The translations under genes were made by a program, and so were the position numbers. The notes under the pieces were generated by a model. That model was not told the DNA's origin. It saw nothing but the letters and a program-made list of their open reading frames with translations, and did not search any database. Below, in pieces: positions 43,616 to 63,089 of a stretch of 64,000 nt of DNA (its first letter is position 1; each line of letters starts with the position of its first letter). The DNA comes from Candidatus Thermofontivivens primus (GTDB lineage: Bacteria > Sysuimicrobiota > Sysuimicrobiia > Sysuimicrobiales > Thermofontiviventaceae), in assembly GCA_031458695.1 (NCBI GenBank), contig JAVKJW010000007.1, forward strand, positions 28,219 through 92,218. Direction: 5' to 3'.

Positions 43616-43617
43616 GT

Positions 43618-45358: not shown

Positions 45359-45362
45359 CGCC

Positions 45363-46794: not shown

Positions 46795-48352
46795 CGGATA
46801 CCTCCTTTCGGATCACCGTATGAGGCTCCATGACCGCCTCCCGCGTCTCCCAGATGGAGACGATGGGGAAGAGCTTGCTGAAGAGGAGGTAGATCAACAC
46901 GAACCCCGCAAGCGCCGCTGCGGTGATGGACCACTCCACCCAGGTGGGCTTGTAAATCGCCCAGATCACCGGGACGTTCTGGATGGGGAGGAAGGGGTTC
47001 TCTAGCGTCGGTACAATGATCACAAAGCGCTTCATCCACGCCCCAATGTTGACGAGGAGGGACGCCACGACCGCAGCGGTGATGGGCCAGGTGTGGAAGA
47101 TCGGGAGCAGCCCCAAAAACGACCACCCACCCAGGGCGAAAACGACCCACAACGCTACAGTACGGATGGTATCCACGTTCTCAACCGCAGCGACCGGCGA
47201 TCTGGAGATCAACAGGAAGAAGGAGATCCCTGTCGCCGTGGCAAGCGCAGCCAGGATTGGCCGGGGCTGGAACAGCGGGAGATCTCCGAGCCGCCGGACC
47301 CAGGAGATGCGCGGCAGGGTCAGCAACAGCACGGGAAGGAGCACCCCAACGATTTGAGTGAACCAGAACAGTCGGGCGTATGGCCCGCTGAACACGGCAG
47401 TGAGGTACCCCCGCTCGTGTGTGGCCATCTTGTAGGCTGGGGTGAGGTATTCGGCGAAAGTGAAGTAGGCGTAGATCAGCCCGAGCGCGATCACGAGATA
47501 CCCCATGCGCCGAAAGTGGGACTCGGTGATGTAATCCTCCAGGTGGTACGCCCAGCGAAAGGCCGCCATCGCCGTCACCACCGCCGCTGCCCCGCTGAAC
47601 AGCGCCCCGGAGACGAAGTACGGACCGAAAATCGTGCTGTTCCACCCCGCGCGCAGGGTCATACCGAAGATCCAAGAGACCACAGTGTGTACCGAGACGG
47701 CGATGGGAATGATCAGGACCGCCATCACCGCCATGATCGTCTCCAGGCGATGACGCTGCTCTTCGGTCCCCTTCCACCCTAGCGCCAGGACGGTGTAGAG
47801 GCGTCTCCGCCAGGCCGGGCCTTGGGCGAACCGGTCCCGTAGCAAGGCGATGTCGGGGATCATGGGCACGTACAGGAAGAGCGTGCTGCCCGTCAAGTAC
47901 GTGGTGATGGAGAGGATGTCCCAAAGGATAGGAGACGGGAGGCGCCCGTGGAGCAGCACGTTGAGAATCCGATCTGGGCGGCCCATGTCCACGACGGGCA
48001 TCAGCGCACCCATGAGGAGCGAGGCGAACGTGATCGCCTCGGCCATGCGGGTAATCGGCCGCCGCCACTCGGCCCCTGTGATCCGGAGGATCGCCGACAT
48101 AAGGGCACCCACATGGCTCACCCCGATGAAGAAGACGAAGTTGGTGATATACACGCCCCACATAACATAGTCGCGAAGACCGGTCACACCCAGCCCGTAT
48201 CGGAGTTGTATGGAATAGGCGATGATGCCCCAGGCGATGACCGCGAGCAGGAAGCCCACCAAGCCATAGAAGCCTGGCCCGCTCTCCGTCAGGGAGGAGA
48301 GGAGCTGTACCTCGCGATCCGAGAACTGTTCGCGTAACTGAGGCGATCTCAT
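46778..48352 (-). CDS. NrfD/PsrC-family polytopic membrane subunit (quinone/quinol-interacting)
   Basis: 524 aa, about 10-12 TM, with NrfD-family features (the HGRLPSPILWDILSITTYL region). ATGA-coupled to the upstream Fe-S subunit gene. Confidence 0.75.
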   Translation of the reverse strand: MRSPQLREQFSDREVQLLSSLTESGPGFYGLVGFLLAVIAWGIIAYSIQLRYGLGVTGLRDYVMWGVYITNFVFFIGVSHVGALMSAILRITGAEWRRPITRMAEAITFASLLMGALMPVVDMGRPDRILNVLLHGRLPSPILWDILSITTYLTGSTLFLYVPMIPDIALLRDRFAQGPAWRRRLYTVLALGWKGTEEQRHRLETIMAVMAVLIIPIAVSVHTVVSWIFGMTLRAGWNSTIFGPYFVSGALFSGAAAVVTAMAAFRWAYHLEDYITESHFRRMGYLVIALGLIYAYFTFAEYLTPAYKMATHERGYLTAVFSGPYARLFWFTQIVGVLLPVLLLTLPRISWVRRLGDLPLFQPRPILAALATATGISFFLLISRSPVAAVENVDTIRTVALWVVFALGGWSFLGLLPIFHTWPITAAVVASLLVNIGAWMKRFVIIVPTLENPFLPIQNVPVIWAIYKPTWVEWSITAAALAGFVLIYLLFSKLFPIVSIWETREAVMEPHTVIRKEVSDAPGA

Positions 48353-49272
48353 GGGTGGTTCCCTCCTGTGGCTGCAGGTTCAGACTCGGCAGGCGGAGCG
48401 GGGTAAATGCGCTTTCTCGGTGGGAGGTAGTAGACGCGCGGCTCCGTGCCCAACTCCTCCATGAACCGGTAGCCAGCGTTGTTGCTGACCAGCTCAGAGA
48501 AACGCACCGTCTCTCCCTGGGAGTTGGTCACGGCGTCCTCAACCTGATCCCCAAAATAGATCGCCCCCATGGGGCAAGCCTGGACACAAGCGGGGAGCTT
48601 GCCCTCCTTGACGAGCCCCGGGCAGAAGATGCACTTCTCGGTAACCCCCTTGACGTGCGGGTAATTCCAATCGGTGGAGTACGGGCGGCTCAGCTCCTCA
48701 GGGGTATGCGGCGGCTCCACCCAGTTGAAGTACCGTGCCGAGTACGGGCAGGCAGCTATGCAAAAGCGGCAGCCGATGCAGCGGGAGGTATCCTGGATCA
48801 CGATCCCGTCCTCGCGCTTCCAGGTGGCGCTCACCGGGCAGACCTTGACGCACGGGGGATTGTCGCACTGCATGCACGGCCTGGGGAACCAGTAGGGTGC
48901 CGCCGCCGGGTTGTCCTGCATCTTGTAGACCTTGATCCATTCCTGCCCGGGCGGAACGAAGTGCATCGCAGTGCAGGCCTCGGTGCAAGCCCGGCATCCA
49001 TCGCACCGGCTTAGATCGATGACCATCACCCAGCGGCGCTGGGAGGTCTCCAAGGCAGGCTGGGCCGGCAGAGGAGCTGCGGAGGCTAGGGCGACGCCAT
49101 CCGGCCCATCGGGCAGGTGATCAAGATGGATAAGACGCCCTGGAGAGGAGGCGTCTGCCACCAGCGCAGGAACCCCCTTCCGGCGGATCAGGCGATTGAG
49201 GCCCGCGGGGAGGCTCGCTGTCCCGCCGAGCACGGCAATCCACTTGAGGAAAGCTCTCCGCGAGAGTCTCAT
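48349..49272 (-). CDS. Tat-exported 4x[4Fe-4S] ferredoxin-type subunit (NrfC/HybA/PsrB-like)
   Basis: Twin-arginine signal (MRLSRRAFLKWIAVLGG) and four Cys4 clusters (CDGCRACTEAC, CMQCDNPPCVKVCP, CIGCRFCIAACP, CIFCPG..CVQACP). Confidence 0.8.
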   Translation of the reverse strand: MRLSRRAFLKWIAVLGGTASLPAGLNRLIRRKGVPALVADASSPGRLIHLDHLPDGPDGVALASAAPLPAQPALETSQRRWVMVIDLSRCDGCRACTEACTAMHFVPPGQEWIKVYKMQDNPAAAPYWFPRPCMQCDNPPCVKVCPVSATWKREDGIVIQDTSRCIGCRFCIAACPYSARYFNWVEPPHTPEELSRPYSTDWNYPHVKGVTEKCIFCPGLVKEGKLPACVQACPMGAIYFGDQVEDAVTNSQGETVRFSELVSNNAGYRFMEELGTEPRVYYLPPRKRIYPAPPAESEPAATGGNHP

Positions 49273-49282
49273 CGTGGCCCCC

Positions 49283-49726
49283 TCAAGGAGTCCCCAGCAC
49301 AATGAGTTGACCCTTCTGGCCGGCGTGATCCGGGGCACATCCAACTTTGGTACACGCGAACATGTAAATCCCCGGCCTTCTTGCCACGAACCGCACCGTT
49401 ACGGTCTGGCCTGGCGGGATCTCCTGGATCGAGACGTTGGCCTCGGGGAGGACAAACCCATGAGCACCCTCGGGGTCGGCGTTGGTAATCTTAAGGATCA
49501 CTGTGTCGCCAGCGTTGGCCACAATGGTCCCAGGGACCCACTTGCGGAGCTGCACCGCCTCCTCTGCCCCGAGCGGAACGAGAACCACGTTGAACTCCCT
49601 TTCCTGGGGGACTACAGGCCGGGAGGCGGACAGCGGGAGGGTATACGCCTGCCAGACTAAGTACCCCACGGTCAGGCTTCCCAGTACCACGAAGAAAACG
49701 ATCAACAGCCACCCACGCCCATTCAT
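49283..49726 (-). CDS. Membrane-anchored cupredoxin-like protein, CuA-motif variant (C-x4-C-x3-H-x2-Q)
   Basis: N-terminal TM anchor (GWLLIVFFVVLGSLTVGYLV) and a cupredoxin fold, with upstream His (GAHGF) and FACTKVGCAPDHAGQ. GGAGGG lies 7 nt before the ATG at 49726. Confidence 0.55.
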   Translation of the reverse strand: MNGRGWLLIVFFVVLGSLTVGYLVWQAYTLPLSASRPVVPQEREFNVVLVPLGAEEAVQLRKWVPGTIVANAGDTVILKITNADPEGAHGFVLPEANVSIQEIPPGQTVTVRFVARRPGIYMFACTKVGCAPDHAGQKGQLIVLGTP

Positions 49727-49759
49727 CTGTGCACCCTCCAATGGATGTTCATCCCCTGT

Positions 49760-50302
49760 TCATGGGGTCATCGCCCTCGATTGTTCTTCCCGGATGGCCT
49801 GAAGGAGAAGGTTCACCAGAAGGCCGTCTCGAACGGCATACTCCCTGGCGATCCTCACCAACCGACGGTCCAACGAAGAAGTCGTCTCATCCTTGCGCTC
49901 AAGGAGGGATCGGAGGTATCCCAGGGTTTTGTGCTGTTCCCATAACCATGCCTCCACGCCCTCCATCTCCGCGGTCTTCCATGCCAGGGCTTCCTGGTGA
50001 CACAAGAAGGCCATCCTTTCCACTACCCGGATGAGATCGCGTTTATCGCGTTTATTGCGTTCATTGCGTTTGTTGCGTTCATTGGGTTCATCGGGTTGAT
50101 CGAGTTTGAGCTGGAGCTGCCGGAGATCTTCTGTGAGATCTGTCAACTCCAGCCACTCCAAAACGTCCCGTAACGCTTGAAATCCGTATTTTTTGAAGTG
50201 CTCTAAGACCATCTCCCGGGTAGGATCTCCAATCAGCTCGGCCAGAACCGTATACGCCTGTGCACGTCGAAATGCCACGGTTCGGGTGTATGGGACGCTC
50301 AT
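49760..50302 (-). CDS. Hypothetical all-helical protein with in-frame (NERNKR)n charged repeat; possibly a TorD-like redox-enzyme chaperone
   Basis: About 180 aa, no Cys/His metal motifs. ATGA-coupled to the upstream cupredoxin gene. Chaperone assignment is speculative. Confidence 0.3.
   Translation of the reverse strand: MSVPYTRTVAFRRAQAYTVLAELIGDPTREMVLEHFKKYGFQALRDVLEWLELTDLTEDLRQLQLKLDQPDEPNERNKRNERNKRDKRDLIRVVERMAFLCHQEALAWKTAEMEGVEAWLWEQHKTLGYLRSLLERKDETTSSLDRRLVRIAREYAVRDGLLVNLLLQAIREEQSRAMTP
50037..50095 (-). repeat. Tandem 18-nt/9-nt in-frame repeat (AATGAACGCAA(C/T)AAACGC x2 plus GATAAACGC) encoding NERNKR-NERNKR-DKR
   Basis: Directly visible as CGTTTATTGCGTTCATTGCGTTTGTTGCGTTCATT on the plus strand. 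Confidence 0.6.
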
Positions 50303-50757
50303 GGTCGGTCCACAGAACCCCGGGGAGCGACGACCAACCATCCCGCCATCTTGCGTGCCGAGGGGGTCGAACGATCATGATCGCAAGGGATTGGGCAATA
50401 AAAAGGGAAACGTCCGGCACGCGTGGCCAGGAACTCTGTGGTCCTTTCTTCTCCCTCTGGGACGATCAGCGTGATCCCATAGTCAGGGATAGTGAACCCG
50501 TGGGTTCCTTCGACTGCCTGAAGACGCAGGCGAACCCGCTGCCCCACGACCGCATGGATCACCTCAGGCCTCCACTTCCCATCTCCGGCGATCAAGGAAA
50601 TGCCAGAAGCAGGGGAGATTTCCCCCCACCCGAGGAACCTCGCCAAAACGACCAGCGCCGGAAGGCCGACGACCACGGCCAGGACAAGGATCCACGCCAC
50701 CGCTTCACTGCGCCGCCGGTCCCGCCAGGTCTCCATTAGACTGTAGAAAGCGGCCAT
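50299..50757 (-). CDS. Membrane-anchored cupredoxin-like protein, degenerate CuA-like motif (C-x3-C-x-H ... M)
   Basis: TM anchor (AVAWILVLAVVVGLPALVVLARF), upstream His (GTHGF) and FYCPIPCDHD...KMAG. RBS GGAGGAGGG. Confidence 0.5.
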   Translation of the reverse strand: MAAFYSLMETWRDRRRSEAVAWILVLAVVVGLPALVVLARFLGWGEISPASGISLIAGDGKWRPEVIHAVVGQRVRLRLQAVEGTHGFTIPDYGITLIVPEGEERTTEFLATRAGRFPFYCPIPCDHDRSTPSARKMAGWLVVAPRGSVDRP

Positions 50758-51048
50758 CCCTCCTCCCCCTCCAGCCTTATCCCTTCAGTCGCTCCGGCAT
50801 GGCGAATATGCCTCATCGTTTCTGGCTTGCTCTTTCCTCCACGATCGTGGCACATTCTCCCTAACGAGGGAATTCGTAAAAGGGGGGATTTTGCGGTACC
50901 GCGAGATGCGGAGAAGGGAGTTACCGGATCCCGACATGAAGACTACTGAGAGACACGGAGGGGATGTGGAGGGGTACGAAGGCGCGCTACGATACGATGT
51001 GGGGGGGCACGGCGGCGCCGTGCCCCCCCACAGGCGGGGACGCTGATG

Positions 51049-51708
51049 TTATGGCTTGATGAGGCCCTTGCGGATGGCGTACCGGACGAGGTCAGCAGAG
51101 GTGTGGAGGCCGAGCTTCTCCATAATGTTTTTGCGGTGGGTCTCCACGGTGCGCACGCTCAAATACAACCGCTGGGCGATCTCCTGGTTGGTCAACCCTT
51201 CGGCGATGAGCCGCAATACCTCCTGTTCACGTTCCGTTAGCCCATCCTCCTCTCCTGCAGGCACCCGCCGCCGGTATTCCTCGAGAAGGGCTTTGGCCAC
51301 CGAGGGATAGAGGTAGGATTCATCTTTATAGACCGAGCGGATCGCCTGCACCAGCTCGCTGGCCGCTGCTCGCTTCACCACGTATCCCGAGGCCCCAAAA
51401 CCCAGCATGGGAAGGACATATTCCTTGTGGTCGTGCATGGTCAGGGCTAAGATGCGCACCTCGGGATGCGCGGCCTTGATCCTCCGTGTTGCTTCCAGAC
51501 CGCCAATGCCGGGCATGGCGATATCCATGATCACGACATCCGGACGTACCTCCTCCACCAGGGCAAGGGCCTGTTCCCCGTCTTCCGCCTCCCCGACCAC
51601 TTCGATGTCCGGTTGCGCCTCCAGGATCATCCTGATCCCTTCTCGGAACAGCGCATGGTCGTCCACGATGAGGATACGGATTGCGCGCTCAGACTGCGAC
51701 GCGAGCAT
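51049..51708 (-). CDS. Response regulator, NarL/FixJ (LuxR-type HTH) family
   Basis: REC domain (ILIVDDHALFREG...DVVIMDIAMPG) plus a LuxR HTH (LTEREQEVLRLIAEGLTNQEIAQRLYLSVRTVETHRKNIMEKLG). Confidence 0.85.
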   Translation of the reverse strand: MLASQSERAIRILIVDDHALFREGIRMILEAQPDIEVVGEAEDGEQALALVEEVRPDVVIMDIAMPGIGGLEATRRIKAAHPEVRILALTMHDHKEYVLPMLGFGASGYVVKRAAASELVQAIRSVYKDESYLYPSVAKALLEEYRRRVPAGEEDGLTEREQEVLRLIAEGLTNQEIAQRLYLSVRTVETHRKNIMEKLGLHTSADLVRYAIRKGLIKP

Positions 51709-53200
51709 CGGTCTCGACCTCCGCAGGAACAGGAATCTCCACGTACAGCCTGGTCCCACCCCCCGGCCTGGAGTGGATGTTGAACGTGCCACCCAGGAGG
51801 GTTGCCCGTTCCCTGATCCCAACAAGGCCCATCCCCCTCCGGGAGGCCCCTGGCCCTAGAACCTCAGCCAGCTCAAACCCTCTTCCATTGTCCTCGACGA
51901 AGATCACCAGGAGGGTCCCATCGAAGTCCAGGAGCACCCGGACGTGGCTGGCCTGGGCATGTTTGATCACATTGGTGATGGCCTCCTGGACGATCCGAAA
52001 CGTCGCCGTCTCCACCGTGCTGGGGAGCCTGCGTTCTAGGCCGTGCGCATGCAAGTCGTAGGTGATGCCGAGGGGGACGAGGTGGCTCTCCAGATATCCG
52101 GATACCGCTGGCACGAGCCCTAGGTCGTCGAGGACCCTGGGGCGGAGGTCGAAGATGATCTTGTGGATCTCCTCGAGGGTTTGGGTGGCGATCTCCCTGA
52201 GCCTCCGGAGCCGCTCGGCCACCTGGACCTCCTTCTTGGGGAGGGTATTCTCCAGGAACTCCAGGTTGACCACCAAGGTGGCGATGGCCTGGCTGGCTTC
52301 ATCGTGCAGTTCCCGGGCGATGCGCCGGCGCTCCTCCTCCTGAGCGGAGATGACCTTCGCGAGCAGCTCCTGCCGTTCCCGGTGATGCAATTCCAGCTCG
52401 CGGTTGGCCCGGGCCAGATCCCTCGTTCGCTCCGCAACCCTCTGCTCCAGGGTAGCGTAGGAATCCTGCAGGCGTTCGGCCATGCGGTTAAATGCCTCTG
52501 CGAGGCGTCCAACTTCGTCATTGGTGGCCACCTGCAACCGGACACCCAGGTTTCCGGAACCAATCGCCTCGGCCCCCTGTTGTAATTGCGCAATCGGCCT
52601 GGTGATCGCGCGGGTGAGGAGCAGCGCAAAGATCAAGCCCAGCAAAGCTGCAGAAGCGGCGGAAAGGAGGAGTTCGCGCTTAGCCTGGGCTTTGCTCTTC
52701 CTGGCGAGCTCCAACACACCGGCGGCCCGCTCGGCATGGAGCTGGTGGAACTGGTCCATCTGGGAGAAGATGGCATGGGTAGCCAGGGTCGTCTCCTCGC
52801 TCCTCCTTCCCCCCAGGACCCCGAGGTCAGAGGGACGATCCGCCCGCCCCTGAACCGCCTTATTCCAGGAGGCGAGAGCCTCCAGAAGGTCTGTCTCCCT
52901 GGAGTCGAGGCCATCGCGTTGAAGGGAACGTGCCAGGGCTCCGCTCAGGCTGTGGATCTCCCCCATCACAGCGTCCTGGTGCTTTCTCGCAGGTCCCCCC
53001 GAGAGCGAGGGCTCAAGGGCCCGGCTCATGGCCAGTTGGAGTTCCAGGAACAAGTCGTGTTCCTCGAAGATCCTGGCGACCGCATCTACCTGTCTCGCGA
53101 CGGCCTCCAGGCTGCGGATGGAGATGACCGCCACTGAGACCAGCAACCCTACCAGGACCAGGAACGCCGCGATGAGCTTGGTGCCTAAGGAAAGCCTCAT
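51689..53200 (-). CDS. Sensor histidine kinase, NarX-like topology (TM, periplasmic helical sensor, TM, HAMP, HisKA_3, HATPase)
   Basis: Two TM segments flank an about 150-aa helical domain. HAMP (AEAIGSGNLGVRLQVATNDEVGRLAEAFNRMAERL), H-box (ELHDEASQAIATL) and the HATPase G-boxes are present. Confidence 0.85.
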   Translation of the reverse strand: MRLSLGTKLIAAFLVLVGLLVSVAVISIRSLEAVARQVDAVARIFEEHDLFLELQLAMSRALEPSLSGGPARKHQDAVMGEIHSLSGALARSLQRDGLDSRETDLLEALASWNKAVQGRADRPSDLGVLGGRRSEETTLATHAIFSQMDQFHQLHAERAAGVLELARKSKAQAKRELLLSAASAALLGLIFALLLTRAITRPIAQLQQGAEAIGSGNLGVRLQVATNDEVGRLAEAFNRMAERLQDSYATLEQRVAERTRDLARANRELELHHRERQELLAKVISAQEEERRRIARELHDEASQAIATLVVNLEFLENTLPKKEVQVAERLRRLREIATQTLEEIHKIIFDLRPRVLDDLGLVPAVSGYLESHLVPLGITYDLHAHGLERRLPSTVETATFRIVQEAITNVIKHAQASHVRVLLDFDGTLLVIFVEDNGRGFELAEVLGPGASRRGMGLVGIRERATLLGGTFNIHSRPGGGTRLYVEIPVPAEVETDARVAV

Positions 53201-53206
53201 CCCCTT

Positions 53207-53671
53207 CTACTTCACCACCAGGGTCCCCTTCATCCCTCGCTCGTAGTGGTCCGGCAGGAGGCAACCGATCTCAAAGGTCCCCTTCTTCCGGGGGGTGAAC
53301 TTCACCTCCGCCTTCTTCCCCGCTTTTACCTCCACTTCAAAAATCCCCATGCCCTCTACCTCGGCTTCAGAGGTTTCTACCTTCACTTCCAGATCCTTGA
53401 AGTAAGACTGCTCCTCTGCCCACTCGTGGAGCTCGTCCATGTCGATACCCGGCTTTGGAAGCGCGTACACCATGAACTCGTGGGTGACCTTCCCTTTGTT
53501 GACCAGGACGATCTCGGCAGGAACCCCTGCGGTCAATGTGACCTGCTTCGGGCGGAAGTAATACTCACCCATCTCCAGGGTCACTTTCTGGGCCTTCGGT
53601 GCAGCCGACCCTCCTTGCATCAGAGCAAGGGCGATCACCATAGCGATAGCTAGGATGGTTACTTTTCGCAT
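53207..53671 (-). CDS. Secreted type-1 (blue) copper cupredoxin, plastocyanin/auracyanin-like
   Basis: Signal peptide (MRKVTILAIAMVIALALMQGGSAA). T1 Cu ligands H (THEF), C-x4-H-x4-M (GCLLPDHYERGM). Confidence 0.7.
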   Translation of the reverse strand: MRKVTILAIAMVIALALMQGGSAAPKAQKVTLEMGEYYFRPKQVTLTAGVPAEIVLVNKGKVTHEFMVYALPKPGIDMDELHEWAEEQSYFKDLEVKVETSEAEVEGMGIFEVEVKAGKKAEVKFTPRKKGTFEIGCLLPDHYERGMKGTLVVK

Positions 53672-53732
53672 CTCCCTTCCCTCCTTTTTGTTTGGATTTC
53701 TTGCGCAGGCACCGCAGATGCTTTGTCCTCCC

Positions 53733-54140
53733 TTAGGGTTCCACGATCACCTCCCCTTGCATCTCCGTATGCTCTGGGCTGCATATCACTGTGCAATAGA
53801 AAGGAAAGGTCCCGGTCTTTTGAGGGACAAATTCGATGATCTGGTAGCTCCCGGGGGTGATCGGCCCGCTCTTTACCTTTAACCCCCGGATACGCAGCCC
53901 GTGGGTAACGTCGGCGCTTGTCACCTTCAACCGGACCTTCTCCCCCCTCCTCACCACGATCTCTGAGGGGAGCCATCCCCCTGCCTCATGGGTCCTAGCG
54001 ATGATGGTGATCTCTCCAGAGGCAGAAGCCACGGCCGGATAATAGATGAACTGATAGGCCAGGATGACCACAGGTATCCCCACTACCGTGAGGAGGACAA
54101 GAAGGAACGCAGTCCACTCAAGACGCCGCATCCTCATCAC
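53733..54140 (-). CDS. Membrane-anchored CuA-motif cupredoxin (C-x3-C-S-x2-H-x2-M)
   Basis: TM anchor (WTAFLLVLLTVVGIPVVILAY), upstream His (VTHGL) and YCTVICSPEHTEM, a canonical binuclear CuA ligand spacing as in COX II/NosZ. Confidence 0.65.
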   Translation of the reverse strand: MMRMRRLEWTAFLLVLLTVVGIPVVILAYQFIYYPAVASASGEITIIARTHEAGGWLPSEIVVRRGEKVRLKVTSADVTHGLRIRGLKVKSGPITPGSYQIIEFVPQKTGTFPFYCTVICSPEHTEMQGEVIVEP

Positions 54141-54141
54141 C

Positions 54142-55599
54142 TCACCCGAGATAGAGCCACAGGAAGAGCACCGTCACACCTGCCAGGTATGCAGAGAGGG
54201 GGACGAGCGCCCGCCTGGCCTTGGTGGATGGGGAGAAGTTTTGCCTGGCAATGGTATCCCCCACCTTGATGGAGAGAACAAGGCCCAGAAGGAGCGTGGG
54301 AACCTGGATGTAGGGCAACAGGTGCGGTGCATAAGGCGTCCAGGGATACCCTTTAGTCCCGAAGAGGTCCCATCCCCAGCCGAATGGATCAGAGAGGACC
54401 GAGAGCGCATAGGAGATGTTGGGGAGCACGAACGAGAAGCTGAAGGCGATCCATCCCGCGAGCCCTAGGGGAACCAGGGTGTAGGCGTAGTCCACGAACA
54501 GCTTCTTCAGGTCAGGGCGGCTTCCACCGGCGAAGACGCGGGAGAGCCAGGTAAATACAAGGTGAAGGGCTGGGGCCGCGACTAGGATGGATCCCAGGAA
54601 GATCGCAGCATACAGGAGAAGGCCAGAGAACGAGGTGAAGTTGGCCCAATCCTTGATCCTTCCCCAAGGCCCCAGCATGACGATGGAGTACATGATCGCC
54701 GCCCCTAACATGATGAAGGCCTTGTAGGCCTCATCCAGCTTGCGTCCCTTCTCCACTTGGAGGTCCTGAAAGAAGGGACGAGTGCGGATGGTGATGTTCT
54801 CGTAAGGACAGGCCTTGATGCACTCGGTGCACAAGAGACAATAGGTGTTCCGCTCCATGGGCGCTCCGGGGAACTCGAAGTTGGGGCAACCGTACCCTCC
54901 CACGCCCCCGACCCGAAGGCTTGCCTCGGTGCTCCCCCGGAAGCAGGCCTTGAACTGGCACTGCCGGCAGACCTCTGCATCCACCCGCCGCACCTCCACG
55001 GGAGCCGCCATGGAGTAAAGCCCCAGGAACCCTCCCACCGGGCAGAGGTAGCGGCAGAAGGTCCTTCGCTCAAACACCAGGTGGGTGACCGCGGCGATGA
55101 TTACGAGCCCCAGGAGAACGGCTCCAGTGACGATGGGACGGGTGGTGAGGACAGCGCTGGTGAGAGCGATGGATGCGAATCCGAAATTGGCTACCCACAG
55201 GTTCCGCAGCCCCTTGGGCCACTTTCGTGCCAGGCCAAAGGTTTTCGGCTTCCAGAGGATGAACGCCCGGCGCTGCATCCACTCCCCGACGGCGGGGATC
55301 GGACACATGGCACACCAGATCCTCGCCCCGAAGGGCACGAGGACCAGGATCAGCAGGGCCCACCAGACGATCCAGACGAAGATGATGGCGAAGTTCTTGG
55401 CCCCAATCGGGGTCCCCAAGAACCCAGCCATGATCACGATGGTGAAGACGAACAGGTTGGGGAGGATCAGGGCGAACTGCAGCCACCGCTGGCGAACGAG
55501 CCATCGCACAGGACGATATCCCAGGAGGTCTTTGCGCCAGGCAACCTCCTGGGGCGGACGCAGGATAGGACGCGCAATCGCAGTGCTACGCTGTGCCAT
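54142..55599 (-). CDS. NapH/MauN-type membrane polyferredoxin (2 x CxxCP plus 2 x [4Fe-4S] ferredoxin motifs) with extra C-terminal TM domain
   Basis: WCAMCP and FCRYLCP motifs on TM-flanking loops. Ferredoxin clusters CRQCQFKAC and CLLCTECIKACP. About 5 additional C-terminal TM helices. Confidence 0.65.
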   Translation of the reverse strand: MAQRSTAIARPILRPPQEVAWRKDLLGYRPVRWLVRQRWLQFALILPNLFVFTIVIMAGFLGTPIGAKNFAIIFVWIVWWALLILVLVPFGARIWCAMCPIPAVGEWMQRRAFILWKPKTFGLARKWPKGLRNLWVANFGFASIALTSAVLTTRPIVTGAVLLGLVIIAAVTHLVFERRTFCRYLCPVGGFLGLYSMAAPVEVRRVDAEVCRQCQFKACFRGSTEASLRVGGVGGYGCPNFEFPGAPMERNTYCLLCTECIKACPYENITIRTRPFFQDLQVEKGRKLDEAYKAFIMLGAAIMYSIVMLGPWGRIKDWANFTSFSGLLLYAAIFLGSILVAAPALHLVFTWLSRVFAGGSRPDLKKLFVDYAYTLVPLGLAGWIAFSFSFVLPNISYALSVLSDPFGWGWDLFGTKGYPWTPYAPHLLPYIQVPTLLLGLVLSIKVGDTIARQNFSPSTKARRALVPLSAYLAGVTVLFLWLYLG

Positions 55600-56146
55600 C
55601 GGTAGCCTCCTCGCTTCGATCTCGGATTTCCTCTCCACGGCGCCACAGCATCAAGACCGTCCCACCCGCCGCGAGCACGGTCAGGGCGAGCGCTCCCCAC
55701 AGGGTGTAGTTGGGGCCTACAACCACCTCGCCGATCATGAACGGGTGCAGGTTCCCGCAGATCACCGAGCAACGGTACCGGATCTTTCCAGGGCGATTGG
55801 CCACAAAGGAGACCACCGTCTCCTGCCCCGGGTAGACCTTCGCGTTGATGCCGTACCCATCGATGTAGAGACCGTGGACGACATCCTCGCTCGTGACCCG
55901 CAGCGTCACGCGGTCACCCAGCCTTACCCGGATGCGCGGGGGGCTGTAGGCAAACTGCCTGGCGGTGATGGTGAATTCTCGCTCCCGCCCGCCCGCCGGT
56001 CCGGCCGCTTGCGACACATTGCTGACCACAAGGATGTCGAGAAGCAACAGAAAGAAGACAAAGGAGAGAACCAGCGAGAGGCCCGTCAAGAACCTTGCCC
56101 TCCCACCGTGAGATCTTAACCCCATACGCCGTGTGTGTCGGAACAC
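55586..56146 (-). CDS. Membrane-anchored CuA-motif cupredoxin (C-x3-C-G-x2-H-x2-M, identical spacing to COX II)
   Basis: TM anchor (FLTGLSLVLSFVFFLLLLDILVV), upstream His (VVHGL) and RCSVICGNLHPFM. A second hydrophobic helix at the C-terminus. Confidence 0.65.
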   Translation of the reverse strand: MFRHTRRMGLRSHGGRARFLTGLSLVLSFVFFLLLLDILVVSNVSQAAGPAGGREREFTITARQFAYSPPRIRVRLGDRVTLRVTSEDVVHGLYIDGYGINAKVYPGQETVVSFVANRPGKIRYRCSVICGNLHPFMIGEVVVGPNYTLWGALALTVLAAGGTVLMLWRRGEEIRDRSEEATDGTA

Positions 56147-56329
56147 TTCCTCGCCTCCTCACGTTGTGTCGTGAGAGTCGGGCTCAGCCTTGCCCTACGC
56201 TCACGCTACCATGAGGTTCTGGAAGGGCACAACACACGATGGGGTAGGCGTTTTCACAAGTTTGCCCTCTTCCGTTGAGCGGGGGAATGTATAGGGGAAA
56301 ACCGCATCGGGAATCGGGTGGGGACTGTA

Positions 56330-56983
56330 TCAGGAATCAGGTGGACGCAGGAGGCCTTTGCGGGCGGCGTAGGCGACCGCCTCCGCCCTGTTGCGCAGGT
56401 GGAGCTTATCGAGGATGTTCTTCATATGGAACTTGACGGTGTTCTCGCTGATCCCAAGGGAGGTGGCGATCTCCCTGTTCGTTGCACCCCCGGCAACGAG
56501 CTGTAGCACTTCCTTCTCCCGCTCGGTCAGTTCCTCTTCCAGGACCTCTCGGGGCCGCTGACCCCCGTGCGTCCTGGCGAACTCCTCCAAGATCTTGCCG
56601 GCCAGCTCCCGGGAGATGACCGCTTCCCCCCGGGCGGCGCTCGTGAGGAGATCGAAGAACTCCTCGGCCTTCAGGTTCTTCAGGAGGTAACCCTGGGCTC
56701 CGCTTTTGATGGCGTCAAAAAGGTCGCGGTCGTCGTCGGAGACAGTAAGAATCACGATCTTCACCTGGGGGAATTCGGCCTTGATGAGGCGGGTTGCCTC
56801 CAGGCCGCTGCATCGAGGCATCCGGATGTCCATGAGAACGACATCCGGTTGGAGCTGGCGCGTCTTCTCCAGGGCCTCCAGGCCGTCGTTGGCCTCCCCG
56901 ACCACCTCCATCCCCCTCGCCTGGAGGAGGCTTTTGATCCCGTCCCTGAACAAGGGATGGTCGTCGGCAAGCAGGATCCTCAT
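56330..56983 (-). CDS. Response regulator, NarL/FixJ (LuxR-type HTH) family
   Basis: REC (ILLADDHPLFRDG...DVVLMDIRMP) plus LuxR HTH (LTEREKEVLQLVAGGATNREIATSLGISENTVKFHMKNILDKL). ATGA-coupled to the kinase. Confidence 0.85.
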   Translation of the reverse strand: MRILLADDHPLFRDGIKSLLQARGMEVVGEANDGLEALEKTRQLQPDVVLMDIRMPRCSGLEATRLIKAEFPQVKIVILTVSDDDRDLFDAIKSGAQGYLLKNLKAEEFFDLLTSAARGEAVISRELAGKILEEFARTHGGQRPREVLEEELTEREKEVLQLVAGGATNREIATSLGISENTVKFHMKNILDKLHLRNRAEAVAYAARKGLLRPPDS

Positions 56984-58356
56984 ACTTCGGCACCCTCCCT
57001 CCTTGCCGTCCTTACAGGGACAGAGACGATCACCTTGGTCCCCCGAAATGGAGCCGTTTCGAGACGGAACGTGCCACCCACAGCTTCGGCACGCTCCCGC
57101 ATGCTCTGGAGGCCAAACCTTGGCCAGGGGCTCGGAGGAAGGTGCTGGGGGTCAAAGCCTCTTCCGTTATCCTCGATGATGATCTGGACCTCCTCTGCTC
57201 CCTCGAGAAAGCGTACCTTGACGGCGGTGGCCTGGGCGTGCTTGCGGACGTTGGTTAGGGCCTCCTGCACAATGCGCAGGAGCTGCACCTCCACCTCCGG
57301 GGGAAACGGAAGAGACCCCGGCTCGCCCTCTATCTCCACGGCGATCCCATAAAGCTGTCTGTAGTGATAGAAGTACTCCTTGAGGACAGACATCAGGGTC
57401 CGATCCGGGCTCAGGGAGGTCCGCAACCCGAGGATTGCCTCCCGGATGTCGGCATACACCTCACGGGCCATGGACTCAAGCTGGGCGAGCTGGGATGAAG
57501 CTTCTTCTATCCGCCCCGCGTTGAGAAGCTCGCGGACCGCCTGGGCCTTGGTGTTCACGTACCCGAGAACCTGTGCCAGTCCATCGTGCATCTCCCTGGC
57601 GATGCGCTCACGTTCTTCCAGAATCGCCAGGCTCTGCACCTGGGCGTGGAGCCGGGCGTTCTCAATGGCGATCGCTGCCTGGTTGGCCAAGCTGCTCAGG
57701 ACTGTCTCCGCCTCCCGGTCAAAGCCATTCGGGCGGCGGCTCCCTGCCATGAGGATCCCTATCACCTTGGATCCAGTACACAGGGGGATGGCGAAAATCT
57801 CCTTCATCTCAGGAGCGGGAAACATTTTCCAAACGTCCGCATGGGGATCGGTGAACCTCAGAACCTGGCCGTCCCCCCCAAAGCAGGGGATCCATGAAGG
57901 TTCTATGGGAAGACGGACGTACGAAAGATTACGGGAATTGTCGACCAGAAGTCGCCAGGTGATCTCTTGGTGCTCATCAAGAAGCCCGAGAGCAGTGACG
58001 TCGCTGTTGAGAAGCCGGTGCGTGCTGACCACCACGGTCCGGATCACGTGATCCAGGTCCAGCTTGGCGGAAATCTCCGTGCCAATCTGGTAGAGGGCCT
58101 GGGTGAGCGCATTTCGAGCTGCCAGCTCCTTGTTGCGGGCAACGAGCTCTTCCTCCATGCGATCGATGATCCCAAAGACAAGGGAAGAAAATATGTGGGC
58201 CCCCACAAGCATGGCAAACAGGACCATCAGGCTAGAAGCCCAGACAGGAAGGTAGTGATCCACTGGAGAGCTGTGCCGGATATATTCAAAGATAGCAATG
58301 AACAGCGCCGGCCCCCAGGTTGTCAGGAGACGCAGGTTTCGCTTGTTCGTAAACAT
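56980..58356 (-). CDS. GAF-domain sensor histidine kinase (TM x2, GAF, HisKA_3, HATPase)
   Basis: N-terminal TM helices, a GAF-like region (the VTALGLLDE..AIPLCTGSKVIGILMAG region), H-box (REMHDGLAQVLG) and HATPase (EDNGRGF). The start is uncertain (58356 or 58395). Confidence 0.8.
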   Translation of the reverse strand: MFTNKRNLRLLTTWGPALFIAIFEYIRHSSPVDHYLPVWASSLMVLFAMLVGAHIFSSLVFGIIDRMEEELVARNKELAARNALTQALYQIGTEISAKLDLDHVIRTVVVSTHRLLNSDVTALGLLDEHQEITWRLLVDNSRNLSYVRLPIEPSWIPCFGGDGQVLRFTDPHADVWKMFPAPEMKEIFAIPLCTGSKVIGILMAGSRRPNGFDREAETVLSSLANQAAIAIENARLHAQVQSLAILEERERIAREMHDGLAQVLGYVNTKAQAVRELLNAGRIEEASSQLAQLESMAREVYADIREAILGLRTSLSPDRTLMSVLKEYFYHYRQLYGIAVEIEGEPGSLPFPPEVEVQLLRIVQEALTNVRKHAQATAVKVRFLEGAEEVQIIIEDNGRGFDPQHLPPSPWPRFGLQSMRERAEAVGGTFRLETAPFRGTKVIVSVPVRTARREGAEV

Positions 58357-58486
58357 ACACGGACAGAGGGTTCGGTTCTGCCTATATTGTGGCATGGATT
58401 CGCCCACCCGTCCATCCGCCCTTCGCCGGATGGGGCATCCGCTGGAGATCTGATGGTTTAACGAACCCCGGTATTTCAAGAGGGAC

Positions 58487-58517
58487 CCCCGGCAAAAGTC
58501 CAAGACTTTTGCCGGGG
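58487..58517. other. Near-perfect 13-bp stem hairpin (CCCGGCAAAAGTC-CAA-GACTTTTGCCGGG)
   Basis: Seen in sequence between the permease remnant and the kinase gene. Possible terminator or insulator. Confidence 0.35.
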
Positions 58518-58622
58518 TGCATAGGTCTCAGGGATCAGGCCTCGGTTGGCTACTCCCTGGGACCTGTGACCTTTCCCCTGGAACCCGTGTATGGCGTCTG
58601 CGGGCAAGGAGATCCCTGAGAC

Positions 58623-59101
58623 TCACGGGTTCCTTTTGGTGCTGTGCGGGTTTCCACCGGAAGATCCGCCGCTCCAGGCGTTCGAACGCCGCAAAGATCC
58701 CCAGCATGACCGCGACACGAGGACGATCAGGGCGATGGTCAGGGCAGCGTTGTAGGTGCTGTGGGCAAAGGAGAGCAGGTAACCCAACCCGCGGCTCGAC
58801 GCCACGAACTCACCCACGATGGCTCCGGTAAAAGCAAAGCCGGTAGCCCCCTTGAGACCTCCCAGTAGCCAGGCGGCCAAGGAGGGAATGGAAACCTCGC
58901 GGAGAAGATCAACCCTCCCTCCACCAAGTGCGCGAACCCGATCTATCAGCCGGGATCGATCTCCCGGATCCCGGAGTACACAGCAAAGAATATAAACCAC
59001 CGTCACCAGGAGGAAGCTGAGGGCGATCTTGGAAGCGATGCCGATCCCGAACCAGATTACGAACAGGGGTGCGAGGATGATCCTGGGCCCGGCGTTAAGT
59101 G
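58623..59101 (-). pseudogene. C-terminal remnant of an SsuC/TauC/NrtB-type ABC transporter permease, truncated by IS insertion
   Basis: The minus-strand translation (LNAGPRIILAPLFVIWFGIGIASKIALSFLLV...REVSIPSLAAWLLGGLKGATGFAFTGAIVGEF) is a BPD_transp_1 C-terminal half. The reading frame continues into the IS inverted repeat. No N-terminal half is present on either side. Confidence 0.6.
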
Positions 59102-60779
59102 GTTCTCGGTGAAAAATGGAGCCGGAAACCGGCATCAATTCATGATCGCATCTCCAATTCGCCGGCAAAATAGCAGGAGTTCCCATTCCCGTGGCGAATC
59201 GAACTGGTGTGTGCACAAGCACATCTATCCGAACCGCCAGGGAGGGAACTCCGATGCAAGTGATTCGCCATACACATTCAAACTCCTGCGGAGGGGTGAG
59301 AGGATGCTCCGCCTGAGGGATCCGCAGGAGTCGTTGTGGTACGAGATCCTTCCCCCTGAGGTGCGCACCCTCCCTGAGGACCTGGCCACTGTCGATTCCC
59401 TGTTGGATGATGAGCGGTTCTTTGCCCCCTTTCGGGAGCAGTTCTCTACATCGGTGGGCCGCCCAACGATTCCTGTGCAGACCTATATCCGGATGATGTA
59501 TTTGAAGCACAGCCGCAAGCTGAGCTACGAGACCCTGGTCAAGGAGGTCTCTAGTAGCATCGCCTGGCGTATCTTCTGCCGCATCCCCCTGGACAGGGAA
59601 GTGCCAGATCGATCGACCCTGATCAAGCTGACGCGCAGATTTGGACCTGAGGTCATAAAAGCATTGCTTGACCTGTTGGTTCAAAAGGGCATAGAGGAGA
59701 AGCTGATCCGGGGTCGCAAGGTACGGGTAGATGCCACCGTGGTCCAATCCCCCATCAAACATCCCACGGACATCGGGCTGCTTGCAGATGGCGTACGCAT
59801 GGTCACGCGGATTACAAAGCGCCTGCAGGAAGTAGGGGTGGCTGCGCAAACGAAGTTCCGGGATCGGACACGTACAATCAAGAAGGTGGTGCGGGCAGTA
59901 GGGTATGCGCTGCGAGGGAAGGCCAGGGAGGCTCGGGAAGCCCTCCGACAGCAGACTATGCGCGCACTGGACATCACCAAGCAGGTCGTCTACCAGGCCG
60001 AGCGCATCCTTCTGGAGAGCAGGGCCAGGGTAGAAAAGATACGGGGATGTGCTGCGGATGCGGGGAAGCAACTGTGGCAGGAACTGCACCATACTTTGAA
60101 CTTGGTCACCCGCGTCATGGCCCAGACGGTGCTCAGCCTGAAGGGGGTCCGGTCGATCCCTGACAGGATCGTTAGCCTGTTTGATCCCCAGAGCGAGGCC
60201 CATCTGCCGGGGCAAGGCCAACCGGAAGACAGAATTTGGCTACAAAGCGGTGCTCACCGAGACCGAGGAGCGGATCATCACCTATTTCGAGGTCTATCAA
60301 GGCAACCCCGCCGATAGCACCCTGCTCATTCCGGCATTTGAAGAGCATGTGCGGGTGATTGGGAAGGTCCCCTGGGCAGTGGCTACCGATCGCGGATTGA
60401 CCAGCAAGGCCAACGAGGCCTACCTGGAGGAACGGGCAGTCCAAAGGATCAGCCTTCCCTATCGAGGTCGTCGCAGCCCTCCCCGCAGGGACTACGAGTA
60501 CCAAAGGTGGTTCAGGAGGCTGCAGCGCTGGAGGGCAGGACAGGAAGCTACCATCAGCCTGGGAAGCCGCAAGTACGCGTGGCTGCACAGCCAGATGAGG
60601 GGACATGATGGTGCACGCATCCACTTCGGGTGGGGGATCTTCGCCTACGACATCAACCGGCTGGCTGCCCTCAGTAGGTCCGCAGCATAAAGGAAGGTGA
60701 TGGAGAGATCCCCTGCTCATCATAGAACCTGACCTGCCCACATACGGATTGTAAAAAATCGGACTTTTTCACCGAGAAC
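59102..60779 (+). mobile_element. IS5/IS1182-like insertion sequence (about 1.68 kb) with 15-bp terminal inverted repeats GTTCTCGGTGAAAAA
   Basis: Left inverted repeat at 59102-59116, right inverted repeat (reverse complement) at 60765-60779. Encodes a DDE transposase. No clean target-site duplication is visible. Confidence 0.7.
59304..60690 (+). CDS. IS5/IS1182-family DDE transposase, split by a +1/-1 frameshift near 60200-60230
   Basis: N-terminal part in frame 0 (DDE_Tnp_1-like: PTIPVQTYIRMMYLKH...VDATVVQSPIKHPTD) continues in another frame (GKANRKTEFGYKAVLTETEERIITYFEVYQGNPADS...ATDRGLTS), matching the conserved RKGKAxKxTEFGYK transposase motif. RBS GGAGGGG before the ATG at 59304. Confidence 0.7.
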
Positions 60780-60924
60780 TACTTTACCAAAACCTCCCTA
60801 CTGGTCCTCGACCCCTGAGGACTAAGCAGGGTCGAATTTTGTGCGCCAGCATGGGCGCTGGCTTGGAGGTGCAAGTCCTCTCTGGGGGTGGTCGCCCCTT
60901 CAGTAGCCTAAGGCAAGGGCGCCG

Positions 60925-60959
<35 letters not shown>

Positions 60960-61219
60960 AGGGGGAGGAGGGGTGAACCCTCCTCCCTACCCGATCCCTC
61001 GATTCAGTGTCAAACTACAGCCATACCTGGCGCTCTTCGGCAGGTAGGAGCTGCGACGGGCGGGTATGGGGCTGGAGTTCGCCAGGCCCGCCGAGTACCT
61101 GCTCGTGGCATCTGATGTCAGGATGATGATCCCCTCCCGGCGGGCCAGTAACTTGACACCCAGCAGGTGGCGGATTACGATGAAGTAGGTCAAAATAAAC
61201 GGACCAAGATGGAGGGGCC

Positions 61220-61450
61220 ATGACTAAGGTCATCAACGTCCATGAGGCAAAGGCGCACCTTTCAGAGATCCTCGAGCGGGTGCGCCGCGGAGAAGAGATC
61301 ATCCTGGGGAAGTACGGCAAACCGTATGCCAGGCTCATCCCCGTCCAGCGCGAACGCGTACCGCTGGGCTTTTTGAACATCAGGGTGCCGGAGAGCTTTT
61401 TTGAGCCGCTGCCGGAGGAAGAGCTGAAGGCATGGGAGGGAAGCCCGTGA
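61220..61450 (+). CDS. Phd/YefM-family type II antitoxin
   Basis: MTKVINVHEAKAHLSEILERVRRGEEIILGKYGKPYARLIP is the classic Phd/YefM N-terminus. Confidence 0.75.
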   Translation: MTKVINVHEAKAHLSEILERVRRGEEIILGKYGKPYARLIPVQRERVPLGFLNIRVPESFFEPLPEEELKAWEGSP

Positions 61451-61836
61451 CGAAACTCCTCCTGGACACCCATGCCCTGCTGTGGGCCCTCGGCGAGCCC
61501 GAGAAGCTGAGCGCACGCGCACGGGAGGCCGTCGAGGATCCTGCAAGTCTGCGTCTTGTCTCCAGCGCGTCGGCGTGGGAGATTGCGACCAAATACCGCT
61601 TGGGGCGACTTCCAGGGGCCGAGGTACTTCTCAGCGCGTATTCCCGGCACCTGCGAACTCTGCATGCGGTGGAACTGACCATCACCTCTGAACACGCCAT
61701 CCTTGCTGGGATGATTCGCCACGTGCATCGGGATCCGTTCGACCGTGTGCTGGCAGCCCAGGCCAGGATCGAAGGAGCCTATATCGTTTCGAGGGACGAA
61801 GTATTTGACGCCTTAGGGGCCCCGCGCCTGTGGTGA
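61447..61836 (+). CDS. PIN-domain VapC-type toxin
   Basis: LLLDTHALLWAL ... DPFDRVLAAQA: PIN acidic residues. GTG start overlaps the antitoxin stop. Confidence 0.75.
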   Translation: MTKLLLDTHALLWALGEPEKLSARAREAVEDPASLRLVSSASAWEIATKYRLGRLPGAEVLLSAYSRHLRTLHAVELTITSEHAILAGMIRHVHRDPFDRVLAAQARIEGAYIVSRDEVFDALGAPRLW

Positions 61837-63001: not shown

Positions 63002-63089
63002 GTCTGGATATATACAACGAGCCTCCTCTCCTCGTTGACGTTTCGTGAACACGCTGACGTTCACTATTATACTGTACTTTGGCAAAATT

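Follow-up and report, generated by a model that had tools for sequence, protein, structure and literature searches.

Two NarL-class two-component systems within a cupredoxin/NrfCD gene cluster of Candidatus Thermofontivivens primus: a candidate two-tier cascade

Several described two-component systems resemble in part two kinase–regulator pairs, here called HK1-RR1 and HK2-RR2, that are encoded in contig JAVKJW010000007.1 of Candidatus Thermofontivivens primus. Both pairs lie on the minus strand of a 64,000-nucleotide stretch of that contig (the window, whose own numbering is used throughout), inside a cluster of copper-protein genes. Among the described systems, NreABC of Staphylococcus combines a GAF module with a HisKA_3 kinase and a NarL-type regulator. 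The histidine of the DevS motif FPPYHPPM is the proximal haem ligand, and the sensors of CopS and CusS are not four-helix bundles. NarX and NarQ are defined by the P-box, a 17-residue ligand motif on helix 1 that contains a nitrate-binding arginine (PMC8534201). TorS has an all-helical periplasmic sensor and governs a respiratory operon by contacting proteins that belong to the system under its control (PMC8534201), and periplasmic copper sensing through histidine residues at the kinase dimer interface has precedents in CopS and CusS (PMC7763554). As a class, HK1-RR1 and HK2-RR2 are ordinary two-component systems. What is new is an orphan sensor on the NarQ scaffold that appears to be of a cation type, a putative operator with neighbouring target genes for the large, uncharacterised HK2-RR2 family, and what would be a conserved two-tier wiring inside a copper-protein cluster. 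We read the locus, with middling confidence, as two functional NarL-class systems dedicated to the cupredoxin/NrfCD cluster and probably forming a two-tier cascade that senses copper or redox state rather than nitrate.

The minus strand from 46252 to 58356 is a single compact cluster according to the open reading frame (ORF) listing of the window. In transcription order it encodes HK2 and RR2 and, after a 183-nt gap, the cupredoxin cup186, a Fer4_5 NapH-like membrane protein, the cupredoxins cup135 and cup154, HK1 and RR1; a 291-nt gap follows RR1, and then come cup152a, unk193, cup152b, NrfC, NrfD and p180. HK2 (56980-58356, 458 amino acids) comprises two transmembrane (TM) segments, GAF, HisKA_3 and HATPase_c domains, as judged from Pfam, TM segments and a family alignment. 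HK1 (51689-53200, 503 amino acids) comprises TM1, an orphan four-helix-bundle sensor, TM2, HAMP, HisKA_3 and HATPase_c. The Pfam matches are HAMP (E 2e-18), HisKA_3 (1.6e-14) and HATPase_c (3.1e-15) in HK1, and GAF_2 (5.5e-12), HisKA_3 (4.1e-15) and HATPase_c (3e-14) in HK2. RR1 (51049-51708, 219 amino acids) and RR2 (56330-56983, 217 amino acids) each consist of a REC domain and a GerE/LuxR-type domain by Pfam (Response_reg E 8.5e-32 and GerE 1.3e-21 in RR1; 1.6e-30 and 6.7e-22 in RR2). Each of the four minus-strand genes begins with ATG, and the members of a pair overlap by 20 nt (HK1/RR1) and 4 nt (HK2/RR2). An earlier note, made from the sequence of the window, had described two separate pairs embedded in a copper-protein cluster, with HisKA_3 kinases and LuxR-type regulators. 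All of this stands: both pairs are intact and differ in their sensors (Pfam, ORFs), the kinases also share HATPase_c, the regulators share Response_reg and GerE, and the synteny with copper-protein genes holds down to about 50% identity.

The residues expected of working kinases and regulators are in place. A motif search found the H-box histidine His299, an N box at 405 and a G1 box at 437 in HK1; in HK2, H257, N369 and D396/G398/G400 do not vary across the family alignment; and reading the translations by eye showed the acidic DD pair and the phospho-acceptor aspartate of the MDI motif (D62 in RR1, D52 in RR2). Purifying selection acts on all four genes: the ratio of non-synonymous to synonymous substitution (dN/dS) against orthologues of 75-78% identity is 0.09-0.18. 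The regulators are 46% identical to each other and the kinase cores 35%. None of the four proteins reaches any curated NCBIfam cut-off. HK1 scores 124 bits with the NarX model (cut-off 578) and 123.8 with NarQ (553), HK2 scores 132 with NarQ (553), and RR1 scores 154.3 with NarL (250) and 129.6 with NarP (343). The best NCBIfam match of RR2 is NarL, at 189.5 bits against 250, and NarP gives 152.9 against 343. The heavy-metal kinase model TIGR01386 gave 32.9 bits, below its cut-off of 292.55.

HK1 shares with NarX and NarQ the order of TM segment, periplasmic four-helix bundle, TM segment, HAMP and S-helix, together with a HisKA_3 core and a LuxR-type regulator. Hydrophobic segments at about residues 8-28 and 178-200 enclose a periplasmic domain of about 148 residues. 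An AlphaFold2 model (nine-sequence alignment, pLDDT 78) contains helices at 5-61, 70-95, 100-121, 130-214 and 229-249, which are predicted to correspond to TM1, the four-helix bundle, TM2 and HAMP, with the first and last bundle helices running into the membrane and HAMP. When this model was compared with the PDB by Foldseek, the NarQ sensor-TM-HAMP structures 5JGP and 5IJI ranked first (E 2e-4, TM-score 0.53-0.58, 15% identity), followed by the bundles of Tar, PcaY and Adeh_2942. Because the model forms a bundle and NarQ is its top structural match, the earlier description of a NarX-like periplasmic four-helix sensor with HAMP is right as to fold and HAMP, but it does not extend to homology of the sensor sequence. 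Profile–profile comparison by hhalign aligned only HAMP and S-helix (HK1 196-255 to NarX 175-234), Pfam found no NarX-type sensor domain in HK1 even with relaxed thresholds, and a PDB sequence search with the HK1 sensor returned no match at E up to 10; homology of this sensor to that of NarX was rejected on these three results. Residues 3-40, covering TM1 and the start of helix 1, give a weak partial match to 4HB_MCP_1 (PF12729; 16.9 bits, gathering cut-off 27). Unlike NarX and NarQ, HK1 has no central GAF-like module: its HAMP ends at residue 246 and its HisKA_3 begins at 290 (Pfam), NarX 235-387 has no HK1 counterpart, and the NCBIfam NarX model matches HK1 only at 288-489, against NarX 388-583.

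The conserved polar residues on helix 1 of HK1 lie at a distance from the membrane similar to that of the P-box, but they are of another kind. The NarX P-box, HAINKAGSLRMQSYRLL as checked against PDB 3EZH, is absent from HK1, which reads IFEEHDLFLELQLAMSRAL at that position; no arginine matches NarX R54, and the aligned stretch is acidic or histidine. In the nine-sequence alignment, which includes relatives down to about 34% identity in the sensor region, some 16 periplasmic residues are invariant, among them E47, H48, D49, E53, Q55, H142, H152 and H155. The earlier note had suggested nitrate or nitrite as the signal and had named the P-box as its own test; the claim fails there, and the invariant residues, counted as three His, three acidic residues and one Gln among the roughly 16, are His, Glu, Asp and Gln, not Arg. 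They would suit a cation rather than an oxyanion. From the limits of the predicted helices, H152 and H155 on helix 4 would be level with E53 and Q55 on helix 1. The ligand of HK1 is most likely a metal cation, judging from these residues, and copper is the obvious candidate. The sensor itself evolves under constraint (dN/dS 0.18) and is rare. A HMMER search of 1.84 billion representative proteins gave two matches to the sensor domain, only about ten full-length relatives of HK1 were found, and a metagenome scan for sensors of this type returned just one distant relative, on the low-GC contigs L092-L094 (29% identity over residues 3-246). That relative has a HisKA-type core and a divergent NtrC-type sigma-54 activator as its partner; it retains the HD and Pro of helix 1 and is without the three-histidine set and HxxH residues.

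HK1-RR1 adjoins cupredoxin, Fer4_5 NapH-like or NrfC genes in all eight contexts that could be recovered, some of them only about 50% identical. HK1 comes immediately after cup154 (in the window, L004, L005, L007, L107 and L105) or p180 (L003 and L106), and in each context it is followed by the gene of its regulator and, further on, by cupredoxin, unk193 or NrfC genes. In the window, the stop codon of cup154, an AAGGGG ribosome-binding site and the ATG of HK1 all fall within 6 nt, and the genes ahead of HK1 (53207-56146) overlap or are separated by short gaps. A perfect inverted repeat with 17-nt arms lies at 50998-51032 on the minus strand, 16 nt past the RR1 stop codon (repeat search, RNA fold); with a folding energy of -40.3 kcal/mol and a z-score of -5.1, this hairpin is likely the end of the cup186-to-RR1 transcript.

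Beyond the hairpin, a bipartite element, AAATCCC-N7-ACGAAT, is found at 50872-50891 (minus strand), upstream of the cup152a-unk193-cup152b-NrfC-NrfD-p180 operon. Its general form AAATCMC-N7-MCGRAT occurs once in each of the seven HK1-RR1 lineages (7/7), always between RR1 and the next operon, and all 11 occurrences in 1.0 Mb of fetched sequence are at RR1 sites, where composition would lead one to expect 0.08. An extended match, GGTACCGCAAAATCCC, is at 50885-50900. The element would be centred near -44, because a -10-like hexamer (TAGNNT or TACGGT, identified by eye) stands 22-23 nt downstream of it in other lineages. The recognition helix of RR1, LSVRTVETHRKNIMEKLGL, is unlike that of RR2, ISENTVKFHMKNILDKLHL, which is the consensus of the RR2 family (pattern ISENTVK[FY]H). 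The first gene of the operon, cup152a, has been cut to an ORF of 46-47 amino acids in three relatives that are 75-78% identical (L004 4443-4583, L005 and L007), and it appears dispensable or decaying in these lineages because only the N-terminal membrane anchor is left. The cup152a leader also contains a 12-bp palindrome, CCACGATCGTGG.

HK2 is a membrane-anchored GAF kinase, as the earlier note had it: one strong membrane segment at 35-65 is preceded by a weaker one and followed by a cytoplasmic GAF domain (Pfam, TM segments). Like the DevS/DosT-DevR systems, HK2 joins GAF, HisKA_3 and HATPase_c domains and is paired with a LuxR-type regulator, and its GAF domain matches DevS GAF-A weakly in sequence (E 0.003). 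Many members of the HK2 family also share with DevS an FPxxHPxM motif and are encoded beside nirK, multicopper-oxidase or nosZ genes. Unlike DevS, HK2 has one GAF domain instead of two and is anchored by a conserved two-TM module, and its sequence has a gap at the Tyr-His of FPPYHPPM. Of the 13 kinases with a nirK, multicopper-oxidase or nosZ link, 11 have the motif; of the 12 linked to cupredoxin/NrfCD genes, none does. In the former it suggests haem-based gas sensing above denitrification genes in Thermomicrobiales and Sphaerobacter. A haem-binding, DevS-like GAF in HK2 itself was rejected on the gap at the motif histidine and the absence of the motif from all 12 cupredoxin/NrfCD-linked kinases. 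A nitrate-binding, NreA-like GAF was rejected as well, no NreA chain being among the PDB sequence matches of the HK2 GAF at E up to 10; HK2 further differs from the NreABC system in that NreB is a cytoplasmic PAS/Fe-S kinase.

The family's link to denitrification genes says little about the input of HK2, because FPxxHPxM is missing from HK2 and its cupredoxin/NrfCD-linked kin; the output module appears to be shared and the sensors swapped. In the family alignment, GAF domains contain no conserved polar residue and no conserved histidine or cysteine. The most constrained part of HK2 is the TM module, with a dN/dS of 0.06 compared with 0.23 for the GAF and 0.14 overall, and an FExxRH sequence at the end of TM1 (R27 and H28 in HK2) is nearly invariant in the family. 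Long-form relatives, which consist of a Cache-like domain, HAMP, GAF and HisKA_3, have a conserved C-x-D-C...D...H inside the GAF that could be a metal or redox site (L003 27-1988, L088 3954-6164, L018 3945-6164, P0154, P0188, P0193, P0211 and P0242). Relatives of this CxDC type adjoin the same cupredoxin-NrfCD cluster or a cupredoxin-HMA P-type ATPase (L018). The GAF of HK2 has neither FPxxHPxM nor CxDC.

The HK2 family is large, with thousands of full-length relatives of 37-50% identity in Chloroflexota, Armatimonadota and Bacillota. Among the closest HK2-RR2 relatives, L007 and L008 keep the layout of the window. In L003 and L088 the order is kinase, regulator, cupredoxins, NrfC, NrfD and p180, and in L009 and L010 it is kinase, regulator and a CopI-like cupredoxin, with a multicopper oxidase and a CopZ-like protein also in L009. 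In L088, RR2 and a perfect palindrome are followed at once by the NrfCD operon and the HK1-RR1 pair is missing from between them, an arrangement that fits HK1-RR1 as an inserted second tier. A scan of one genome per species (GTDB) gave 80 further HK2-RR2 loci (L012-L091), mostly from Chloroflexota. Across these 80, the gene after the regulator encodes a GltD-like Fe-S flavoprotein in 32, a two-domain multicopper oxidase in eight, NirK in five, a NosZ-like protein in one (L076), and CopI-like cupredoxins or NrfCD in about eight. The nirK gene lies above the curated cut-off in all four loci scored (L014, L045, L087 and L020).

The palindrome CCTACCC-N4-GGGTAGG was first seen in three early loci and then tested on 68 others at up to two mismatches. 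It is present in 32 of the 68, between positions -30 and +450 relative to the stop codon of the regulator gene, and its density there is 1.02 per kb compared with 0.014 per kb elsewhere, a 72-fold difference. In 16 of the 21 such loci with a copper-protein gene it stands 38-623 nt upstream of that gene. The consensus of this candidate operator of the RR2 family is CCTACCCAAATGGGTAGG. Beside HK2-type systems, the palindrome marks the promoters of nirK, two-domain multicopper oxidase, nosZ-like and GltD-like Fe-S flavoprotein genes.

No full palindrome is found at up to two mismatches in the window, L001, L007 or L008. The window and its nearest relatives keep only CCTACCC, a perfect half-site that in the window occupies 56242-56248 on the minus strand, roughly 100 nt before cup186 begins. 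Three nucleotides after it, at 56228-56238 (minus strand), follows an 11-mer, CGTGTGTTGTG, that is identical in L003, where the proteins are about 50% identical. In L007 and L008, 10 of its 11 positions agree, and intergenic regions in about 0.9 Mb contain it nowhere else. The 11-mer overlaps a -35-like TTGTGC (56227-56232), and a -10-like TAGCGT lies 18 nt downstream at 56203-56208 on the minus strand, both hexamers having been read by eye. Two other candidates were set aside: a palindrome, CGGATG-N3-CATCCG, upstream of HK2 that occurs only in the window and L001, and a 9-mer, CGGATGCCC, that is mostly coding sequence of the receiver motif MDIRMP. An unbiased search for 8- and 9-mers shared among seven RR2-to-cupredoxin intergenic regions gave counts no higher than shuffled sequence; a signal emerged only with the test of the palindrome from three loci on the 68 others. 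The cup186 leader (56150-56205) contains an imperfect inverted repeat with 14-nt arms, 86% complementary, and CTCACG-N6-CGTGAG, which runs into the GAGGAGG ribosome-binding site just before the GTG start; both could be translational or attenuator structures.

A search of three intergenic regions for shared heptamer or NarL-like sites had been suggested. Candidate sites were found in two of them (56147-56329 and 50758-51048) and none in the third (53672-53732). The idea of shared heptamers did not survive, as each promoter has its own, different element. In this the locus departs from NarL/NarP: the candidate sites are not 7-2-7 heptamer pairs, and both regulators fall below the equivalog cut-offs.

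A cascade is the simplest reading of these observations, because HK1-RR1 ends the operon that has the RR2-type half-site, the NrfCD operon has the RR1-linked element, and L088 lacks the HK1-RR1 pair between RR2 and NrfCD. In the first tier, HK2-RR2, the widespread partner of this type of cluster with CCTACCC-N4-GGGTAGG as its putative family operator, would work through the half-site, whose centre is near -44 in the cup186-Fer4_5-cup135-cup154-HK1-RR1 promoter. HK1-RR1, at the 3' end of that operon, would be made only with the first tier on. HK1 would then add a periplasmic check, sensing through a NarQ-like bundle whose ligand site may have been remade with His, Glu, Asp and Gln at the height of the nitrate site of NarX and NarQ, with a metal cation, copper foremost, as the probable ligand. 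In kinases of this build a piston or rotation movement of TM2 and HAMP relays the signal to the kinase histidine (here His299) and on to the regulator aspartate (here Asp62 of RR1). RR1 would act at AAATCCC-N7-ACGAAT and switch on the cup152a-unk193-cup152b-NrfC-NrfD-p180 operon. The direction of regulation in both tiers is our inference. Copper is the likeliest signal because of the ligand-type residues of HK1, the histidine precedent of CopS and CusS, the CopI-like cupredoxins and the copper-handling neighbours. HK1 and HK2 resemble CopRS/CusRS in their copper-protein setting, with a CopI-like cupredoxin, CopA in the sister genome and invariant periplasmic histidines in HK1. They differ in being HisKA_3 kinases with NarL-type regulators, where CopRS/CusRS have a HisKA kinase and an OmpR-type regulator.

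Several points weigh against the cascade and its copper signal. The right half of the RR2-type site in the window is GTGTGTT, mismatched at four of seven positions, so RR2 might bind there only weakly or in a changed manner. The loci that yielded the RR1 pattern are also those used to count it, and the half-elements of this pattern are about 14 bp apart, wider than usual for dimer sites of the NarL type. Regulators and elements were paired by position only. Promoter hexamers were called by eye, and a generic promoter and terminator scan of 46000-58700 gave counts at chance level, with none in the key intergenic regions. The proposed metal site of HK1 draws on conservation in only nine sequences and on a monomer model. 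The CopI matches of the cupredoxins score 40-80 bits, with a curated cut-off of 280, and no recognisable terminal reductase, catalytic terminal enzyme or exporter is found in the cluster.

Three other explanations were weighed against the cascade. Under nitrogen-oxide control, HK1 would sense nitrate or nitrite as NarX and NarQ do, HK2 would report a second signal, and both would switch on a copper-based respiratory chain. NarQ is indeed the best structural match of HK1, whose HAMP and S-helix are NarX-like (including ESYAxLEQRV), the cluster encodes NrfC/DsrO-like, NrfD and NapH-like electron-transfer proteins, and relatives of HK2-RR2 stand beside nirK in L014, L045, L087 and L020 and beside a nosZ-like gene in L076. 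The sensor, however, has no P-box, no arginine like NarX R54 and no homology to NarX in profile comparison or Pfam, and the HK1 scores of about 124 bits fall far below the NarX and NarQ cut-offs of 578 and 553. The FPxxHPxM motif of 11 of 13 nirK-, multicopper-oxidase- or nosZ-linked kinases is absent from HK2 and from 12 of 12 cupredoxin/NrfCD-linked kinases, and the window ORFs examined include no nir, nor, nos or nar gene. This account is distinctly unlikely. The signal might instead be the state of a protein or of the membrane. HK1 would in that case read by contact whether cup154 or p180 is apo or holo, oxidised or reduced, and HK2 would read membrane or quinone redox through its FExxRH module. 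HK1 always lies directly after cup154 or p180, a position that may equally reflect mere co-expression, and an all-helical sensor controlled by protein partners is known in TorS (PMC8534201). TorS nevertheless differs from HK1 in having two stacked bundles, a hybrid kinase and an OmpR-type regulator, and a TorT-like binding protein is not present here. The strong constraint on the HK2 TM module (0.06, compared with 0.23 for the GAF) and the lack of conserved polar pocket residues in the family's GAF speak for redox reading by HK2, whereas invariant His, Glu, Asp and Gln on two adjacent helices of HK1 are what one would sooner expect of an ion site than of a protein interface. We regard sensing of a partner or of redox state in this form as possible but improbable.

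The pairs might also work in parallel, each regulating itself and its own neighbours, or one might be a drifting duplicate. Identities of 46% between RR1 and RR2 and 35% between the kinase cores would fit an old duplication, the window has no full RR2 palindrome, and 91 nt upstream of HK2 there is a breakpoint of an insertion sequence (IS) or a rearrangement. A drifting copy sits badly with purifying selection on all four genes, and independent pairs sit badly with the position of HK1-RR1 at the 3' end of a cupredoxin operon with no separate promoter gap. The two promoters also have distinct conserved elements, the recognition helices differ, and L007, L008 and L003 keep the layout. We consider the parallel arrangement very unlikely.

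The cascade would govern a set of genes that look like an undescribed electron-transfer system. Five membrane-anchored cupredoxins are encoded at 46252-56146 on the minus strand: cup186 (55586-56146) and cup135 (53733-54140), both CuA-motif cupredoxins; cup154 (53207-53671), a CopI-like type-1 cupredoxin; cup152a (50299-50757), which heads the operon presumed to be the target of RR1 (46252-50757); and cup152b (49283-49741). In cup135 and cup186 the CuA-type motif H...C-x3-C-x3-H-x2-M is complete, and their best matches are the C-terminal domains of NosZ and CoxB. The cluster also holds the NapH/CcoG-like Fer4_5 membrane protein (54142-55638), an NrfC/DsrO-like Fe-S protein with a TAT signal (48349-49344) and NrfD (46778-48352); these assignments, like those of cup186, cup135 and cup154, come from Pfam and NCBIfam. 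No family was assigned to the ORF products unk193 (49760-50341, 193 amino acids) and p180 (46252-46794, a membrane protein of 180 amino acids). The earlier note had hinted at a respiratory system rather than a simple copper-resistance locus, and the evidence points both ways. The NrfCD/DsrOP-like and NapH-like genes, together with nirK and nosZ beside relatives of HK2, point to respiration, a pointer weakened by the DevS-like haem-pocket motif that the nirK/nosZ-linked relatives bear and HK2 does not. The neighbouring CopI-like cupredoxins, CopA, the CopZ-like protein and the multicopper oxidase point to copper homeostasis. CopI (described in PMC13308877) gives the best NCBIfam matches of the adjacent cupredoxins, and copper-handling neighbours are CopA in the sister genome L001, the multicopper oxidase and CopZ-like protein in L009, and the cupredoxin-HMA P-type ATPase in L018.

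A wider interpretation is tentative and, in our view, somewhat doubtful. HK1 would found a new class of periplasmic sensor of copper or cupredoxin state on the NarQ scaffold, the relatives of HK2-RR2 would be unrecognised master regulators of copper enzymes in Chloroflexota and Armatimonadota, acting through CCTACCC-N4-GGGTAGG with swappable sensors, and the cascade would gate a quinol:cupredoxin system on copper. If this is true, the targets of the HK2-RR2 family would include NirK, NosZ-like proteins, two-domain multicopper oxidases and CopI-like cupredoxins with the NrfCD quinol module, and the family's sensor would be interchangeable among a haem-type GAF, a CxDC-type GAF and a membrane module. 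The literature searched contained nothing on the regulation of copper enzymes, NirK and NosZ included, in Chloroflexota or Armatimonadota, and nothing relevant on the cluster or on copper-regulated auracyanin/cupredoxin two-component systems. The putative operator offers a testable handle for mapping regulons across hundreds of uncultured genomes. The orphan sensor of HK1, in which the NarQ scaffold seems to be reused for a cation site, would allow ligand specificity in four-helix-bundle kinases to be tested on a small soluble domain. The comparison corrects a tempting wrong annotation, as JGI names relatives 'nitrate/nitrite-specific' kinases, and the regulatory evidence would mark the cupredoxin, NapH-like and NrfCD genes as one functional system.

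The sister assembly L001 (GCA_031432505.1) is 99.7% identical over 41689-58447 of the window, and the identity ends at 58447, 91 nt upstream of the HK2 start. Beyond this breakpoint, L001 (1-4753) encodes an OmpR-type two-component system, cytochrome b, a 180-amino-acid protein and a CopA-type P-type ATPase. In the window, 58448-64000 contains the transposases DUF772 (59109-60317) and DDE_Tnp_1 (63090-63905) and a group II intron domain match (60923-60995), and it looks like an IS-mediated insertion or rearrangement beside the cluster. On the other side of the cluster, a region of ABC-transporter genes at about 28-46 kb has a GC content of 0.50-0.57, lower than the 0.60-0.64 on either side, the cluster included; this region may be a segment of different history.

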